From: Candidatus Campbellbacteria bacterium GW2011_OD1_34_28
GTDB taxonomy: Bacteria; Patescibacteriota; Minisyncoccia; Phycocordibacterales; UBA12079
DNA: 64,000 bases
Direction of reading: 5' to 3'
Assembly: GCA_001029775.1 (NCBI GenBank)
Contig: CP011215.1
Span: 357,722 to 421,721, forward strand
Shown: positions 3,318 through 47,845 of the stretch, piece after piece
Layout: each line of letters opens with the position of its first letter
How positions within the stretch are numbered: the first letter of the stretch is position 1
Translations under genes and position numbers: made by a program
The notes under the pieces: generated by a model
The model's input: the letters and a program-made list of their open reading frames with translations, nothing else
What the model was told of the DNA's origin: nothing
Databases searched by the model: none

Positions 3318-3373
3318 AAACCAAAAAATTACGAAATTTTCACGGTCGTGAAAATTTCGTAATTTTTTGGTTT
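3318..3373. repeat. Palindromic repeat, family P (AAATTACGAAATTTTCAC-GGTCGTG-...), variant copy
   Basis: Near-perfect 50-bp palindrome; related copies at 27927-27972, 28617-28663, 47794-47845. Confidence 0.7.
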
Positions 3374-3514
3374 GGAATTTGAAATTTGAAACATTTGAAT
3401 TTTAAAATCTTAAAATTACAAAAAGTAAAAAGTTCGCACGGGAGTTTTATTGAAGTATGAATTTTTTAATTTTTGACTTTAAAAATAATTGATATTTGAG
3501 AAATAAAAAATCAC

Positions 3515-3548
3515 CCAGCAGAAGCGCTTCTGCTGGGTGATGTGGTTG
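3515..3548 (-). terminator. Minus-strand rho-independent terminator (tcacccagcagaagc-gcttctgctgggtga + T-run on minus strand)
   Basis: 14-bp perfect stem; on minus strand followed by TTTTTTATTT. Confidence 0.6.
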
Positions 3549-4092
3549 GTGTCCTCGGACGCGTTCCGAGAACCCCCAGAGGCCGGCTTTGTGCCGGTTT
3601 ATCCGTGGAGGGGAATTTCACCCCTCCTGATCGATGGTCGCCGATGTGGGGCGTGTCCTTGACCCAAAACGCAGGCAATCTGACTTGCGTCTGTCGTTGG
3701 CACATGCCGTTGGCAACCTTCCTTGCCGTCGGTATCTCCACCGGAATCATCTATCGTGGCCTGCTAGCAAGCCACAACTCCTCCGGTACCGACTTCCAGA
3801 ATCCGTCAAGACGCTTTTTGTCTTCCATGGCGTGGCGGAACCAGTCTAAAATCGCTATGCGTGGCGATTCTCGACGGGATTTTCTCGTGCGACTGGCCCA
3901 GTATTTTAGGGCCGGCCGGTCTTGGAACTTCAGCCGAAGGCTATCGGGCAGGTGGTGGTGGCCCCGGCGACGATCGAAATCCGTTCGGGTCGCGGGGGTG
4001 CAGGGGTCTGGTTGTCGGCTTTCAGCAAGGTTTTGGCGATTGCGGGATGTCCTTTGTTCATGGCGTTTTTTCCTCCTCTGTTGTGGTTGGTG
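3541..4092 (-). other. GC-rich (~58-60%) ~0.55 kb non-coding island flanked by 11-bp direct repeats TGTGGTTGGTG; candidate structured RNA or foreign insertion
   Basis: GC far above the window background. All ORFs here are R/W/P-rich nonsense in every frame. Direct repeats at 3541-3551 and 4082-4092. Minus-strand terminator abuts it. Contains a 44-codon minus-strand ORF with a GGAGGA SD. Confidence 0.4.
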
Positions 4093-4430
4093 AAGAACAA
4101 TATTTTATAAAAACATCTTAGCACTCGTCAAAAATTTGTCAAGTGTTTATTTTGTATACATCTTTTGTTTTTATCGTATTTTTGTAATTCAAAATTAGAT
4201 ATTCAATTAAAATTTTAAATTTGAAATTACCTCCATACCCTAAACGCTATATGCTAAACCCTATTAGAATGTTGACTTTGAATCAGGTCTTTGATAAGAT
4301 ACTGTCTAGTTAATTAAAGCCTTGCGCTTTATTAGCGACGTAGAGTGAAAGAAATGAAAATTCATTTTCATTTCTGAACCGAGGAGCTAATATAAGGGCG
4401 CCTGCCGCTTTTATTTTAATTTTAAAAACA

Positions 4431-10344: not shown

Positions 10345-10635
10345 ATGAGAGAAAAAACCGCCTATGTTTATATAATGGCAAGTAAGAAAAACGGAACATT
10401 GTATACGGGCGTAACATCTAATTTAGAAAAAAGAGTTTGGGAACACAAAAATAATATTGTAAAAAGTTTTACACAAAAATACAATGTTCACAATTTAGTT
10501 TATTTTGAATTCGGAGAAAATATTTTATCTGCGATAGAAAGAGAGAAACAAATTAAAAGTGGCTCTAGAAAAAAGAAAATAGAATTGATTGAAAAAGATA
10601 ATCCTGAATGGAATGATTTATCAAAAAACTTTTGA
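10345..10635 (+). CDS. GIY-YIG nuclease family protein (96 aa)
   Basis: YVYIMAS..GTLYTGVTSNLEKRVWEHK GIY...YIG motif. Confidence 0.8.
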   Translation: MREKTAYVYIMASKKNGTLYTGVTSNLEKRVWEHKNNIVKSFTQKYNVHNLVYFEFGENILSAIEREKQIKSGSRKKKIELIEKDNPEWNDLSKNF

Positions 10636-11165
10636 TGACGTGGATCGCGTCGGCTTCGCCTCGCGAAGACGATCCGCACGAACAACGTGGACCTGCCTCT
10701 TTTCTGAAAGAAAAGCAACGACACGGCGAGGCAGGTTGTTTCATTGCGTTCGCAATGACAAATTTCTAAAAGAAATTTGTCACCTTCGTCGTCATTGCGA
10801 GCGTAGCGAAGCAATCCATCATGAACTGTTTGTCCGAAATTAATGGACGTGGACCTGCCTGCCGGCGAGGCAGGTCGCTTCGGCTTCGCCTCGCGAAGAC
10901 GACCCGCACGAACAACGTGGACCTGCCTGCCGGCAGGCAGGTCGCTTCGTCGCTTCGTTGCACTCCGCTTCTCGCGAAGACGAAGCCACGTCGTCATTGC
11001 GAGCGTAGCGAAGCAATCCAGGACGACGAACAACTCAAAATAAACGACGTGGATTGCTTCACTTCGTTCGCAAAGACGGAATTTCTCAAAACGAAATTCC
11101 GTCACCTTCGTCGTCATTGCGAGCGTAGCGAAGCAATCCATAACAACTCGGTCTTGCAAAGAAAA
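10636..11165. repeat. Dense cluster of nested palindromic repeats (families A, B, C); non-coding
   Basis: Three forward copies of cgtcgtcattgcgagcgtagcgaagcaatcca (10788, 10990, 11110) plus an inverted copy at 11045. A 48-bp unit is duplicated (10650/10880). cctgcctgccggcaggcagg palindromes. Irregular spacing. Confidence 0.75.
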
Positions 11166-21508: not shown

Positions 21509-21527
21509 GACTGGGTCCGACCCAGTC
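21509..21527. repeat. Perfect hairpin gactgggtc-c-gacccagtc, copy 1 (upstream of RAYT gene)
   Basis: Identical copies at 21728-21746 and 22230-22248. Confidence 0.8.
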
Positions 21528-21549
21528 TCACTGTGTTAAAATAAAAAAC

Positions 21550-22251
21550 ATGAGAAGAAAAGTACTATTTGTAAACGGAGAATTTTATCATATCTTTAAT
21601 AGGGGAACAGATAAAAGAAACATATTTTCGGATAAAAATGATGCATTTAGATTTCTTGAAAGTATCGAAGTTTTTAATAATATTGAAGCCGGCAATAATA
21701 TCTTTCGCACTCATAGATTGAAAAATGGACTGGGTCCGACCCAGTCTAATCCAGAGAAGATAGAGAAAAAAGAACCAATAGTGAATATTATTTGTTATTG
21801 TTTAAATTCAAATCATTATCATTTTATATTGGAACAATTAGTTGATGGTGGAATAAGTGAATTTATGAAGAGGCTAGGAGGTGGCTATACTTGTTATTAT
21901 AATGAAAGACATAAAAGATCGGGGGTATTATTTCAGGGTAAGTTCAAAGCTGCTCATATAAAATCAAATGAACAATTATTGCGCCTTAGTTCTTATGTGA
22001 ATTTGAACAATAAAGTCCATCAAAAATTTGATAAATATAAAAAAAATTTCCTTGATTTGATTGCAAATAGATCAAGTTGGGAAGAATATATTAAAAAAGA
22101 TAATAAATACAGTATTTGCAAAAAAGATATCATTTTAGGACAATTTAAAAACAGAGAAGATTATAGAAAAAATGCCGAAGATGTGATAAAAGAAATTAAA
22201 GAAATGAGGTATGGGGAAGAAGTAAACTCGACTGGGTCCGACCCAGTCTAA
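21550..22251 (+). CDS. IS200/IS605-family HUH transposase, REP-associated tyrosine transposase (RAYT)-like
   Basis: EFYHIFNRG..IF, HUH motif NHYHFIL, GYTCYYNERHKRSGVLFQGKFKA..LSSYVNLNN; flanked by identical hairpins. Confidence 0.7.
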   Translation: MRRKVLFVNGEFYHIFNRGTDKRNIFSDKNDAFRFLESIEVFNNIEAGNNIFRTHRLKNGLGPTQSNPEKIEKKEPIVNIICYCLNSNHYHFILEQLVDGGISEFMKRLGGGYTCYYNERHKRSGVLFQGKFKAAHIKSNEQLLRLSSYVNLNNKVHQKFDKYKKNFLDLIANRSSWEEYIKKDNKYSICKKDIILGQFKNREDYRKNAEDVIKEIKEMRYGEEVNSTGSDPV

Positions 22252-22307
22252 ACGACCCAGTCTAAAAAGAATTTTGTTTGAAATTAATATAGTATAATAA
22301 AGATATT

Positions 22308-24264: not shown

Positions 24265-24435
24265 TAGCAACTAGCAACTAGTTTTTAGCAAACGAATGAC
24301 GACGTGGATTGCTTCGTTACACTCGCAAAGACGGATTTTGCGAAGCAAAATCCGTCACAAATTTTCTTTGGAAATTCGTCTTTGCGAACGAAGTGAAGCA
24401 ATCCACGATAGTTTCTAAAAACTAAAAACTAATAT
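24265..24435. repeat. Inverted pair of family-A repeats flanking the hairpin gacggattttgcgaagcaaaatccgtc
   Basis: gacgtggattgcttcg...cgaagtgaagcaatccacg. Confidence 0.75.
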
Positions 24436-26822: not shown

Positions 26823-27845
26823 TTAATTTATTTTTACAGGTCTGTAATTTTCCGGAGCCTCTTTTAAATATTTTTCAAGTTTCTCTCTGGTTAACAATCC
26901 TTCTTGTGCCCCTAAATATTGAACAACCGACATTGAATTGATGGGTCCCCACATCAATGCTTCGTCTATTGATTTTCCTAGAACTAAAGCAGATGTAAAG
27001 GTAGAAGAAAAAGAGTCGCCGGCACCTGTTCTGTCCACAGGTGATTTCTCGTCGGGATACATCGGCATATGCCACATTTCGTTTCCGTCATATGAATATG
27101 CTCCGTTTGGACCGTCTGTAATAACAACTATTTTTGGACCCAACTCTCGCATCATTTTCATTAATTCTTTAACATCAGCATTGTCTACATTTTTTCCCAA
27201 TGGTTTTAATATTCTTTGGGCTTCTTCTATATTGCAGAAAAATAATTCAGAAACTTCATAAACATTTTTTAATTTTTCATATCCCAAATTAATTTGAAAT
27301 GTTCCTGGTTGAAACGCCATTTTTATTTCTGGATTTTCTTTTACATATTTTGCGATCTCTAGTTGGTAGTTAAGAGAATTTTCCGCCAGAGAACTTAGAT
27401 AAATCCATTTTGGTTTTCCGATGTCTGGCAGTTTGTAATCAAATTCTGCGTGTTTAACCAAAATAGTTCTATCAGAATTGAAAGATAAAACAAAGTGATA
27501 ATTTGTTGGATGCTCTTTATGAGTTCTTATAAAATCGGCTATAACACCATCTTTTTTTAAAGAATTTAGGCATTTTATTCCATTTTCGTCATCTCCAATT
27601 TCTGCAATCAGTGCAGATTTTAATCCCAGTCGTGAAGCTGAAACAGAAGCGTTAGGACTGTTTCCAACTGCCGAAATTTCTGTTGATTTTCTGTAAGGAA
27701 TTTTATCGGCAAAATTCATACAAATTTTCTCTTTTCCGTCTTCTTTGTATGTCTCTGCTTCTATCAATTCAATAAAATTATCAACAACAATATCGCCGAT
27801 GGCAATAAAATCTAGGTCTTTATTTTTTTTATTTAATCCAAACAT
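26823..27845 (-). CDS. PfkB-family carbohydrate kinase (ribokinase-like)
   Basis: Two Gly motifs and DRTGAGDSFSS anion-hole motif. Confidence 0.85.
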   Translation of the reverse strand: MFGLNKKNKDLDFIAIGDIVVDNFIELIEAETYKEDGKEKICMNFADKIPYRKSTEISAVGNSPNASVSASRLGLKSALIAEIGDDENGIKCLNSLKKDGVIADFIRTHKEHPTNYHFVLSFNSDRTILVKHAEFDYKLPDIGKPKWIYLSSLAENSLNYQLEIAKYVKENPEIKMAFQPGTFQINLGYEKLKNVYEVSELFFCNIEEAQRILKPLGKNVDNADVKELMKMMRELGPKIVVITDGPNGAYSYDGNEMWHMPMYPDEKSPVDRTGAGDSFSSTFTSALVLGKSIDEALMWGPINSMSVVQYLGAQEGLLTREKLEKYLKEAPENYRPVKIN

Positions 27846-27926
27846 GTAATTAGTATATAGTATATAGTTTTTAGTTTCTAGTGTTGGGGTTGGGGACTAT
27901 GGGTAAACCTCAATTGTTTGTGTTTA

Positions 27927-27972
27927 TAAAAATTACGAAATTTACGCGACCGCGTAAATTTCGTAATTTTTA
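27927..27972. repeat. 46-bp perfect palindrome AAAATTACGAAATTTACGCGACCGCGTAAATTTCGTAATTTT (family P)
   Basis: Identical copy at 28617-28663; in divergent promoter region between the PfkB gene and ORF 28000. Confidence 0.85.
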
Positions 27973-27999
27973 TTTTTAAAGTTATAATATGACATATAT

Positions 28000-28551
28000 A
28001 TGAAACATATAAATGTTCAAAAAGTTATTTTAAATACTGTCGCTGTAGCAGGGTTGATTGGTGTTGCCGTTTTGGCTCCAAATGCTTTACAGGTTGTAAA
28101 GCAATTTACTCCAAAAAAGAAAAAATGGACAAGAGAAACATATTATATGAATGATTCGATTGAAAATTTGTTAGAGAAGGGATTGATAGAAAAGGTTAGA
28201 AAGGGCAATACTGAATTTATTAAACTTACGAAAAAGGGTGGTGAGCTGAGCGCAAGATATGAATTGGGTGATTTGGAAATAGAAAAACCTAAGAAATGGG
28301 ATAAAAAATGGAGGGTAATAATTTTTGATATTTCAGAAAACAAAAAAAGCCTGAGAGATTTGTTAAGATTAAATTTAAACAGGTTAGGTTTTGTTAAATT
28401 GCAAAATAGTGTTTGGGTTTTTCCTTATGAATGTGAAGAATTAATTTTCTTATTAAAGACAAAGTTTTTTATAGACAGCGATGTTTTGTATATGGAGGTT
28501 AATAGAATCGAAAACGAAAAATGGTTAAAAGAAGTTTTTGGCTTGAATTAA
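28000..28551 (+). CDS. Hypothetical membrane-anchored winged-helix protein with PaaX-C-like domain
   Basis: N-terminal hydrophobic helix, wHTH-like segment, C-terminal WRVIIFDISE...GFVKLQNSVWVFP resembling PaaX C-domain. Confidence 0.4.
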   Translation: MKHINVQKVILNTVAVAGLIGVAVLAPNALQVVKQFTPKKKKWTRETYYMNDSIENLLEKGLIEKVRKGNTEFIKLTKKGGELSARYELGDLEIEKPKKWDKKWRVIIFDISENKKSLRDLLRLNLNRLGFVKLQNSVWVFPYECEELIFLLKTKFFIDSDVLYMEVNRIENEKWLKEVFGLN

Positions 28552-28616
28552 CCCCGCCTAATATAAGAACAGATTATTGTTTTTGTGTTTGAGAGATTAA
28601 TAACTGAAATTCAAAA

Positions 28617-28663
28617 CAAAAAATTACGAAATTTACGCGACCGCGTAAATTTCGTAATTTTTT
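28617..28663. repeat. Second identical copy of the family-P palindrome
   Basis: Exact match to 27927-27972. Confidence 0.85.
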
Positions 28664-28864
28664 TTAAAATACTTGAATCATCTTAAATTGCAATCGGACT
28701 GAGCCGGTCTGAATTGAACTGAATCGAAATGACTGAACTGAATCGAATCGATTTGAATTTTTGAACTCCCAGACTTGGTATATTTGGAGATATTTTATTT
28801 TTGTGATAATTTTGTTTTAGGTTTGTCGCTGCATATAAATATAAAGGAATAGCAGGAGGAATTT

Positions 28865-29242
28865 ATGCCAGAAGTAAGGTTGGTTGCGTCCAAAGAGACT
28901 TTCAACAAGTTTTCAAAATCTCAACGAAAGGAATTTTCTGATGTTTTAAGATGCTGTGTTGCTACCAGTTTGAGTCTTTATCGATTAAAACCTTTTACAG
29001 AAGATAGCATAACTGTTCACTGGGATATCCCCGAGGAATCTTACAACGAGAACGATCTTGTTGTTAAGATTGAATTTTCTGTTGGAGGAAATGGCTTCAA
29101 TCCCTCTTATGAACAATTGAAGAACATTACTTCAGGTATATCCGCATTTATTTTCAAATGTCTCATTCATTCTAACTTGTTAGAGGTTGCTGTGTGGCTT
29201 CGCCCTCAACAAAATGGTGTGTGGATGTTGAAAAAGTCATAA
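28865..29242 (+). CDS. Hypothetical protein (125 aa), possibly tautomerase-superfamily fold
   Basis: ORF with AGGAGG SD; starts MPEVRL; terminator 29253-29280. Confidence 0.45.
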   Translation: MPEVRLVASKETFNKFSKSQRKEFSDVLRCCVATSLSLYRLKPFTEDSITVHWDIPEESYNENDLVVKIEFSVGGNGFNPSYEQLKNITSGISAFIFKCLIHSNLLEVAVWLRPQQNGVWMLKKS

Positions 29243-29252
29243 TTTTCATTTT

Positions 29253-29280
29253 GTGTTAAAAACCCGTGAAGTGCTTCACG
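29253..29280 (+). terminator. Rho-independent terminator cccgtgaagtgcttcacggg + T7
   Basis: Perfect stem and T-run. Confidence 0.65.
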
Positions 29281-29308
29281 GGTTTTTTTCTATGTTAATA
29301 TATAATAT

Positions 29309-38810: not shown

Positions 38811-38884
38811 AGTTGGTAGTTGGTAGTTGGTAGTTGGTAGTTGGTAGTTGGTAGTTGGTAGTTGGTAGTTGGTAGTTGGTAGTT
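38811..38884. repeat. Heptanucleotide microsatellite (GTTGGTA)x~10 abutting the tRNA 5' end
   Basis: Unit matches the tRNA D-loop sequence cagttggtag. Confidence 0.85.
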
Positions 38885-38957
38885 GCCATCTTAGCTCAGT
38901 TGGTAGAGCAACGGTTTTGTAAACCGTAGGTCCTCGGTTCGAATCCGAGAGATGGCT
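38885..38957 (+). tRNA. tRNA-Thr (anticodon UGU)
   Basis: Cloverleaf: acceptor gccatct/agatggc, D-arm gctc-agttggtag-agc, anticodon stem acggt/accgt with loop tttgtaa, T-arm ctcgg-ttcgaat-ccgag. Confidence 0.85.
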
Positions 38958-39147
38958 CAGAAAAAGTTTACAGTTAACAGTAAACAGTTTACAGTAACAA
39001 AAAAATCCCTGCGGGGATTTTTTGTTTGTTGCTCTAACGACTGAGCTAGCTCAGTAGGATAAAAAGCAAACTGCTTTGCTTTTTATCCGGTTTTTGCTTT
39101 AGCAAAAAATTTCCGTTATCGAGTGAAGCGAGATAGGAAATAGGTGG

Positions 39148-39473: not shown

Positions 39474-39575
39474 AATTGAGTGCTGGGTTAAAATCCGAGA
39501 GATGGCTCAGAAAAAGTTTACAGTTAACAGTAAACAGTTTACAGTAACAAAAAAATCCCTGCGGGGATTTTTTTG

Positions 39576-47793: not shown

Positions 47794-47845
47794 AACAAAT
47801 CATCTTAAAATTTATGCGACCGCATAAATCTTAAGATGATTTGTT
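47794..47845. repeat. Family-P palindrome variant (aacaaatcatcttaaaatttatGCGACCGCataaatcttaagatgatttgtt)
   Basis: 52-bp perfect palindrome sharing the GCGACCGC core. Confidence 0.8.

Follow-up and report, generated by a model that had tools for sequence, protein, structure and literature searches.

Why does a small gene in a bacterial chromosome stand between two copies of one long palindrome, and what does the palindrome do there? The question is raised by the spacer between pfkB and fba in Candidatus Campbellbacteria bacterium GW2011_OD1_34_28, which we analyzed within a stretch of 64,000 nucleotides (contig CP011215.1, positions 357,722 to 421,721 of the forward strand; hereafter the window, in whose own numbering its features are given). 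The gene encodes a short relative of the phenylacetate repressor PaaX, which we call mini-PaaX. The reading that we judge to be modestly favored takes the palindromes to be the predicted cognate binding sites of an autoregulated mini-PaaX, with site, gene, and site together forming a cassette that has been gained, lost, and relocated. Binding is predicted here from the protein fold, from the geometry of the sites, and from the co-occurrence of site and gene. On our best reading of the sequences, the palindromes appear to be neither a plain family of terminators nor an ancestral operator of pfkB.

The palindrome pair and the gene between its copies

The initial annotation had described two identical, perfect palindromes of 46 bp. 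The pair is real, and its copies are identical over 44 bp as read from the sequence (27928-27971 and 28619-28662), but both are near-perfect rather than perfect, each having an asymmetric two-nucleotide center, AC, in the same orientation. An exact 42-mer contained in them (27929-27970 and 28620-28661) has an expectation of 0, based on 100 shuffles of the window. Read as an inverted repeat, the downstream copy extends from 28616/18 to 28663/65, with arms of 22-24 nt. The placement reported around the gene was confirmed: the upstream copy lies within the 154-bp divergent spacer to pfkB and ends 26-28 nt before the ATG, and the downstream copy begins 66 nt past the stop codon. The hexamers CGACCG and CGGTCG occur only six times in the 64 kb, and four of the six are the centers of the window palindromes, namely the flanking copies (27926 and 28616) and two relatives pointed out earlier (3318 and 47794), both of which are genuine inverted repeats.

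The protein matches the Pfam family PaaX_M (PF20803) with an E value of 3.2e-19 (69 bits against a cutoff of 24), besides a marginal match to a winged helix. An AlphaFold model built from 36 homologs, with a mean predicted local distance difference test (pLDDT) score of 84.5, has a helix 1, strand, helix 2, helix 3, and wing (residues 6-76) followed by a beta-alpha-beta-beta-alpha-beta domain (residues 104-180). The chain ends at residue 183, right behind this Cas2-like domain, and has no counterpart of the C-terminal ligand-binding domain of PaaX. In Foldseek searches with the whole chain, the best match in the Protein Data Bank was E. coli PaaX (8a39, E = 2e-4), followed by further PaaX-like structures; the single domains matched winged helices of the AspA/PadR type and Cas2, respectively. 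The PaaX equivalog model TIGR02277 gave 38.5 bits against a cutoff of 264.55, with only profile positions 40-133 of 279 covered, the Cas2 model TIGR01573 covered just residues 105-140 and reached 22.1 bits (cutoff 24.5), and PADLOC returned only weak, partial matches to Cas2 models (E = 3e-5 to 8e-3), with no match to any other defense system. Mini-PaaX consists of a winged helix and a Cas2-like PaaX_M domain, lacks the C-terminal domain of PaaX, and is neither a true PaaX nor a true Cas2. Many members of the family are unnamed in databases or carry the name “CRISPR-associated endonuclease Cas2”, which is very likely a misannotation.

The family comprises 803 matches in a word-indexed search and 564 clusters at 50% identity in an exhaustive search (E ≤ 1e-30). 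At least three paralogs were confirmed on contigs of one metagenome-assembled genome (GCA_028689435.1), with up to seven going by source names. Among the aligned family members, variation peaks in the recognition helix (residues 43-59), and the Cas2-like domain hardly varies; most of the 31 invariant columns fall in the latter, including F109-D110, Q135-N136-S137, and Y143. The label of membrane protein given to the product in the initial annotation is probably wrong, since the hydrophobic N-terminus (residues 6-36) is modeled as helix 1, strand, and helix 2 of the winged helix, at a pLDDT of 65-82, with its helices buried.

Sites and modules across paralogs

The association between gene and palindrome was examined in a set consisting of the window gene and ten further paralogs, 50-82% identical to the window protein and drawn from several lineages of the Candidate Phyla Radiation (CPR) with a GC content of 30-46%. 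The loci fetched were L043, L044 (two genes), L045, L040, L048, L050, L052, L058, and L060. In all 11 modules, an inverted repeat centered on CG-(AC/GT)-CG is present both upstream and downstream of the gene. The center of the upstream site lies 28-131 nt before the ATG (median 49, and 39-52 in 7 of the 11), and that of the downstream site 20-294 nt past the stop. The two copies within a module agree at 29-36 of 36 nt, compared with a mean of 17.6 between modules, and being so much more alike within than between modules they indicate that each gene has its own cognate pair. It is the outer boxes that differ among paralogs, with the center RCG-(AC/GT)-CGY and the A4T4 tracts staying constant. 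The window protein (P0001) and P0004, which are 80% identical, have nearly the same helix 3 and nearly the same site (TTACG..ACGCG for P0001, TTACA..ATGCG for P0004). The earlier suggestion that the palindrome is an operator of the winged-helix protein it flanks thus gains indirect support from the PaaX-like fold, the long-spaced geometry, and the matching pair in 11 of 11 paralogs.

No companion gene is conserved across the modules: ORF125 of the window, a 207-aa gene in L045, and two further open reading frames (ORFs), ORF101 and ORF93, are without family matches and are not common to the modules. Two of the loci, both from one related metagenome-assembled genome, have a cassette-array-like arrangement inside ribosomal operons. 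At L044 (656-2182), three identical palindromes are placed around two genes, mini-PaaX and a 93-aa ORF, between rplE and rpsN in the spc operon; at L045 (3937-5796), two palindromes enclose mini-PaaX together with the 207-aa orphan gene, between rpsG and fusA in the str operon.

An alignment of 32 sites on their centers describes how the site is built. Arm positions 1-3 are invariant (G, C, and a purine), giving the center RCG-AC-CGY or its inverse, and positions 5-12 are T4A4, the arm reading AAAATTTT toward the center. Positions 13-17 are variable between subfamilies (with boxes TTACG, ATCCC, TACCAC, ATCTTA, ATACTC, GTACAC, GTATAC, and others) and yet 94-100% mirror-symmetric. The symmetry falls to 75-88% at positions 5-7 and decays past position 18. 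This pattern points to a functional unit of ~38 bp, made of two specific boxes ~24 bp apart and a constant center, and would be the one expected for a dimer reading two boxes plus the center rather than for a plain stem. At L048 and L052, the boxes and the center are kept and the arms no longer pair, which argues for recognition of duplex DNA over an obligatory hairpin. The central dinucleotide is AC in 14 sites and GT in 18, and never any other. In a strain 98.5% identical, the downstream center reads GT in place of AC (L042, 1814-1851), and in L036 (529-566) it reads NN. Assemblers can mis-orient the center of a perfect palindrome. The inversion could be either a real flip-flop in the population or an ambiguity of assembly, and it is given little weight; as evidence of recombination, center flipping was set aside and kept as a hint, owing to the possibility of de Bruijn artifacts at perfect palindromes.

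The site also stands in a suggestive relation to the start of the gene. TATAAT-like hexamers occur 7-12 nt before the ATG in the window, L052, and L060, and directly after the site in L040, a placement that would give the transcripts a short leader and put the right-hand box on the −35 position. A scan for consensus promoters called no full plus-strand promoter in the upstream region of the window gene. At the other end, the downstream copy with its T8 could also terminate the mini-PaaX transcript.

The history of the modules can be approached through the gene orders around them. In three relatives whose PfkB is 74-77% identical (L053, L055, and L056), pfkB and fba are directly divergent, with spacers of 84, 301, and 151 bp, and these loci, covered over 9-11 kb each, contain no mini-PaaX gene and no CG(AC/GT)CG palindrome. 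The empty spacers indicate that the palindromes arrived together with the gene, and they speak against the earlier idea that control of the sugar kinase is the ancestral function. Three spacers in collinear gene orders show the reverse, holding a module in a relative and none in the window. These are the rplE-rpsN spacer (module in L044), the spacer downstream of gatB (module in L044; the window has instead a small ORF, 10346-10625, amid GC-rich repeats), and the spacer between the genes for an M50 peptidase and an aminoacyl-tRNA synthetase (module in L050; only ~90 bp in the window). In total, including pfkB-fba, four otherwise syntenic spacers differ by presence or absence of a module. The nearest module found, that of P0004, lies downstream of gatB and not between pfkB and fba, and the flanking genes of this relative are collinear with the window; gene and both sites therefore appear to have changed place together. 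In one genome, modules also split the spc (rplE-rpsN) and str (rpsG-fusA) operons, which modules leave intact in its relative. From such comparisons, the site-gene-site unit of ~0.6-0.9 kb probably behaves as a cassette that is gained, lost, and relocated.

Solo copies of the site are found in the window (3318 and 47794) and at L038, L039, L040, L045, L048, and L050. The solo at 3318-3373 has its outer boxes in common with the flanking copies, and its inner bases are changed in a mirrored way (ACGCG to TCACG); its place corresponds to that of the third palindrome in L044, where the spacer holds a mini-PaaX module. The solo at 47794-47845 shares only the center and the general layout with the flanking pair. 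Its syntenic counterpart in L050 (4328-4365) carries mirrored substitutions, and this conservation of place suggests that some solos are old and possibly functional. Three further loci, whose flanks are unrelated, turned up with the TTACG-type palindrome when metagenomes were scanned; it lies between convergent genes in L039 (next to a solo of the P0003 type), in a divergent spacer upstream of clpP in L038, and between tandem genes in L040. Solos of both types are cognate to resident paralogs. All 26 palindromes mapped against ORFs are intergenic, in mixed contexts. The initial annotation had reasoned that palindromes occurring mainly at the 3′ ends of unrelated convergent genes would simply be a terminator family; the solos are convergent, divergent, and tandem, and several members have no T-tract. 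A scan of GTDB species genomes for TTACGAAATTT-N6-20-AAATTTCGTAA gave 34 loci, nearly all in unrelated organisms, which we take as chance or unrelated hairpins; its single match in Parcubacteria (L014) was rejected as a different low-complexity repeat.

The coordinates of the features in the window are given in Table 1.

Table 1. Palindromic sites, the mini-PaaX gene, and the surrounding features of the pfkB-fba spacer in the window
Feature	Position	Strand	Description
Solo site, TTACG subfamily	3318..3373		27-nt arms, GT center; outer boxes TTACGAAATTT / AAATTTCGTAA, inner TCACG-GT-CGTGA; rplE-rpsN spacer
pfkB	26823..27845	minus	
Whole pfkB-fba spacer	27846..29308		1463 bp; site-gene-site plus ORF 28865-29242 and terminator
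Upstream palindromic site	27926..27973		23-nt arms, center CG-AC-CG; center 51 nt 5′ of ATG
Right outer box of upstream site	27962..27967		CGTAAT; at expected −35 element position
TATAAT hexamer	27983..27988	plus	putative −10 box of a near-leaderless promoter; 12 nt 5′ of ATG
mini-PaaX gene	28000..28551	plus	183 aa; winged helix ~6-76 plus Cas2-like PaaX_M ~98-180
Downstream site copy	28616..28665		44 bp same as upstream copy; followed by T8
Orphan ORF125	28865..29242		125 aa, no family match; in pfkB-fba spacer
Solo site, other subfamily	47794..47845		25-nt arms, outer box ATCTTA, center GCG-AC-CGC; clpB / tRNA-Tyr / mnmA spacer

Several other elements were seen near these features. Between the 3318 solo and rpsN lies an island (3500-4110, minus strand) that is GC-rich by eye in a genome of 35% GC. 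Within it is a 64-aa ORF (3930-4124, minus strand) that has GGAGG as its ribosome-binding site, and a strong hairpin terminator (3508-3543), the only part in common with L044, closes the island; the RNA fold z-score of the island is −5.8, and it has no Rfam family at E < 1 and no protein family match. A GC-rich dispersed repeat, GTCGTCATTGCGAGCGTAGCGAAGCAATCC, has at least seven copies (8569, 10779, 10981, 11101, 18144, 24366, and 26741), often arranged as inverted pairs (10992-11078 and 24303-24407), and several of them cluster around the ORF at 10346-10625, which is GIY-YIG-like by eye, in the same spacer downstream of gatB that holds the module of the relative. The 3′ end of tRNA-Thr (38885-38958) and the sequence downstream of it (38930-39023) are repeated 550 bp further on (39480-39573) with 96% identity, resembling an att-type duplication around a very small insert. 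Short tandem repeats, namely AGTTGGT in seven copies and AAAACTT and GATTAATTT in variable numbers, are common in intergenic spacers, including ones that abut palindromes (window 38811-38887; L050 9846-9890 and 10706-10750).

Weighing the explanations

If the palindromes are indeed sites of mini-PaaX, a dimer would bind one 38-bp site, its two variable recognition helices reading the variable outer boxes (arm positions 11-18, ~24 bp apart) and a conserved part of the protein sitting over the invariant center RCG-(AC/GT)-CGY with its flanking, bendable A4T4 tracts. The upstream site would overlap the −35 region of a short-leader promoter and so lead to self-repression, as with PaaX at Px, and the downstream site would be a second copy that may permit looping, insulation or, in this window, termination. 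The most economical route of movement would be excision and re-insertion via recombination between the identical sites, a circle of the gene plus one site docking at a solo site; the solo sites would be extra binding sites and perhaps docking sites for recombination. The protein itself might conceivably catalyze the exchange. A number of observations weigh against this reading as a whole or in part. A second, downstream operator is unusual for a simple autoregulator. The hydrophobic N-terminal segment is followed by KKKK and could still be a membrane anchor, and TATAAT-like hexamers are frequent by chance in a genome of 35% GC. The perfect symmetry of most sites, even at positions that a protein need not read, also fits homogenization driven by hairpins, or a function as a hairpin in single-stranded DNA or RNA. 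As for the cassette, the relatives with an empty pfkB-fba spacer are fairly distant, such that loss and gain are not distinguishable, and the syntenic position of the 47794 solo is more in line with a stable regulatory site than with a mobile copy of recent date. The proposal in the initial annotation that the gene is cargo of a palindrome-bounded element is borne out in part, by the four presence/absence differences and by the different location of the nearest module; no exact boundaries, target-site duplications (flanks read by eye), excised form, or mechanism were found for it among comparison genomes too diverged for junctions to be placed, and the extra DNA in L044 and L050 reaches past the palindromes.

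The alternatives account for some of these observations and leave others aside. The genes could be stable chromosomal regulators, vertically inherited and with small regulons, the palindromes being their operators and the differences between genomes reflecting repeated gene loss in shrinking genomes. Such an account, which we consider unlikely, is compatible with the PaaX-like fold and operator geometry, with an upstream site over the promoter region, with the 47794 solo in the same syntenic spacer of L050, and with solos that precede housekeeping genes, among them clpP (L038) and gatB (L048). It is at odds with the nearest module, that of P0004, which has a protein 80% identical and a near-identical site at a different locus with collinear flanks, as well as with modules that break the spc and str operons in one genome but not its relative, with the downstream site in 11 of 11 modules, and with pfkB-fba spacers empty of any site. 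The opposite view would make the element mobile through its own protein. Mini-PaaX would be a recombinase or nuclease with the invariant Asp110 of its Cas2-like domain as the active site, and the palindromes would be its ends; the winged helix would bind the variable boxes, and cleavage or strand exchange would take place at the invariant CG-AC-CG center, possibly on extruded hairpins, which would make it a minimal transposon or homing cassette of a new class. We regard this as quite improbable. One small gene between two protein-specific ends, along with solo ends, does parallel the REP-RAYT and IS200 elements discussed below, recombination sites typically combine an invariant center with variable boxes, and conservation of the Cas2-like domain goes far above what a mere dimerization module would need; the presence/absence differences at four spacers and the altered centers of L042 and L036 point the same way. 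Nevertheless, searches turned up no transposase, integrase, or HUH motif, PaaX_M and a subthreshold Cas2 being the sole matches, and no target-site duplications or clean ends were found at the compared loci. To our knowledge, no recombinase activity has been described for Cas2 or PaaX domains. The center flips may be assembly artifacts, and the single distant homolog in viral contigs has no site, in itself an uninformative result.

Finally, the palindromes might be hairpin repeats independent of the protein (REP/MITE-like, that is, resembling repetitive extragenic palindromes or miniature inverted-repeat transposable elements, or else bidirectional terminators, insulators, or RNase III targets) that merely adjoin these genes, an explanation to which we assign a small chance. 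Their RNA hairpins are stable, at −25 to −34 kcal/mol with a z-score of about −8; both window copies match the intrinsic-terminator pattern, with A-tracts and T-tracts beside the stems, mirrored substitutions preserve perfect stems, and other dispersed palindromes and terminators abound in the genome. What such repeats would not lead one to expect is an association with mini-PaaX on both sides in 11 of 11 cases with paralog-specific sequences, a symmetry highest at the boxes and center and lower mid-stem, or sites that keep boxes and center but not the stem or T-tract (L048, L052, L058, and L060); a T-tract or a stable stem is lacking in sites of L043, L060, L058, and L052. The spacer that holds the upstream copy is one of divergent promoters, where there is nothing to terminate, and the ordinary terminators of the window differ in having a GC stem and a 3-5-nt loop. 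At Rfam gathering thresholds, only the two tRNAs were found in the window, and a permissive search gave only spurious matches of microRNA and small-RNA hairpins on the palindromes. The role as a terminator may be a local addition in this window and not a function of the family as a whole.

Bacteria of the CPR (Patescibacteria) have tiny genomes with few recognizable regulators. The mini-PaaX family is large and poorly annotated, and a simple rule, that each gene has two copies of a paralog-specific 38-bp site with a fixed center, allows its annotation to be corrected. The modules would also offer ready-made natural pairs of protein and DNA specificity for the PaaX fold, and they are a candidate explanation for some of the turnover of spacers, even in the spc and str ribosomal operons. 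If mobility were to depend on the protein, CPR bacteria would harbor a minimal mobile element of a kind not recognized before. Could a Cas2-fold protein then act as a stand-alone recombinase? If true, this would offer a clue to the first link between Cas2-type proteins and insertions flanked by repeats.

Comparison with known systems

The closest functional parallel is PaaX itself, the repressor of phenylacetate catabolism in E. coli and Pseudomonas. Both proteins have an N-terminal winged helix and a Cas2-like middle domain (PF20803), and both have a site at their own promoter, which is putative in mini-PaaX. In E. coli, PaaX recognizes the operator TGATTC(N27)GAATCA and keeps RNA polymerase off its own promoter, thereby repressing it (PMC9493321); as of that 2022 review, no structure of a DNA complex had been reported for the fold (PMC9493321). 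Two inverted hexamers with an unusually long spacer (N27 in PaaX, ~N24 in the 38-bp mini-PaaX sites) are a likeness in geometry alone. The differences are considerable, as mini-PaaX has 183 aa against ~305-316, lacks the C-terminal phenylacetyl-CoA-binding domain, and has no paa genes near its gene. It also occurs as several paralogs per genome, each bracketed on both sides, with an invariant site center and a location that differs among genomes.

In layout, the unit resembles REP-associated tyrosine transposase (RAYT) systems, which likewise have a small gene between two copies of its own palindrome, solos dispersed between genes, and several subfamilies per genome. Mini-PaaX is, however, not a Y1/HUH transposase (there is no Y1_Tnp match), and its palindromes are longer (38-56 bp), nearly perfect, and fixed in their center. 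A direct link to a RAYT was rejected, as the Y1_Tnp gene of the window (21550-22251; Pfam E = 2e-6), which is IS200-like or RAYT-like, has an unrelated 20-bp palindrome of its own, GACTGGGTCGGACCCAGTC. Three copies of the latter lie within 21509-22252, one ahead of the gene, one within it (21728-21748), and one at its end, forming a separate system of the REP-RAYT type. The IS200/IS605 elements are similar in their size of ~0.7 kb, their single protein of ~150-190 aa with a ferredoxin-like fold, and their hairpin-forming ends. Mini-PaaX differs in having no HUH or Tyr motif and no Pfam match to Y1_Tnp, and its ends are identical palindromes rather than distinct left and right subterminal hairpins; no evidence of transposition via single-stranded DNA was found.

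With Cas2 and VapD-like nucleases, mini-PaaX shares the C-terminal Cas2 fold and its motifs (an Asp at the end of beta-1, and LQNSVW). Its Cas2-like domain is, in contrast, fused to a winged helix and scores below the cutoff of the Cas2 model. A CRISPR/Cas2 system was rejected, as a survey of direct repeats found no array in the window, no cas1 or other cas genes are among the called neighbors of the 11 paralog loci, and the Cas2 score is subthreshold; in the window, the neighbors are pfkB, fba, pilin genes, and ribosomal genes. Integron cassettes (attC) are comparable as short, promoter-proximal cassettes bounded by imperfect palindromes and capable of forming arrays, as in the three sites and two genes of L044, and the direct repeats at the flanks, as well as the solos, would be accounted for if a circle were excised and inserted again where a site matches. 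The mini-PaaX units differ in having no integron integrase or attI, in having identical sites inside each module that are peculiar to its protein, and in encoding their own DNA-binding protein instead of a promoterless cargo gene.

Full-text searches of the literature returned no account of mini-PaaX or Cas2-like genes bracketed by palindromes. The unit fails the defining features of PaaX proper, of Cas2, of RAYT, and of IS200. As a mechanism, it would be akin to a PaaX-type repressor and operator; as an arrangement of DNA, it resembles a REP-RAYT or IS200 unit.

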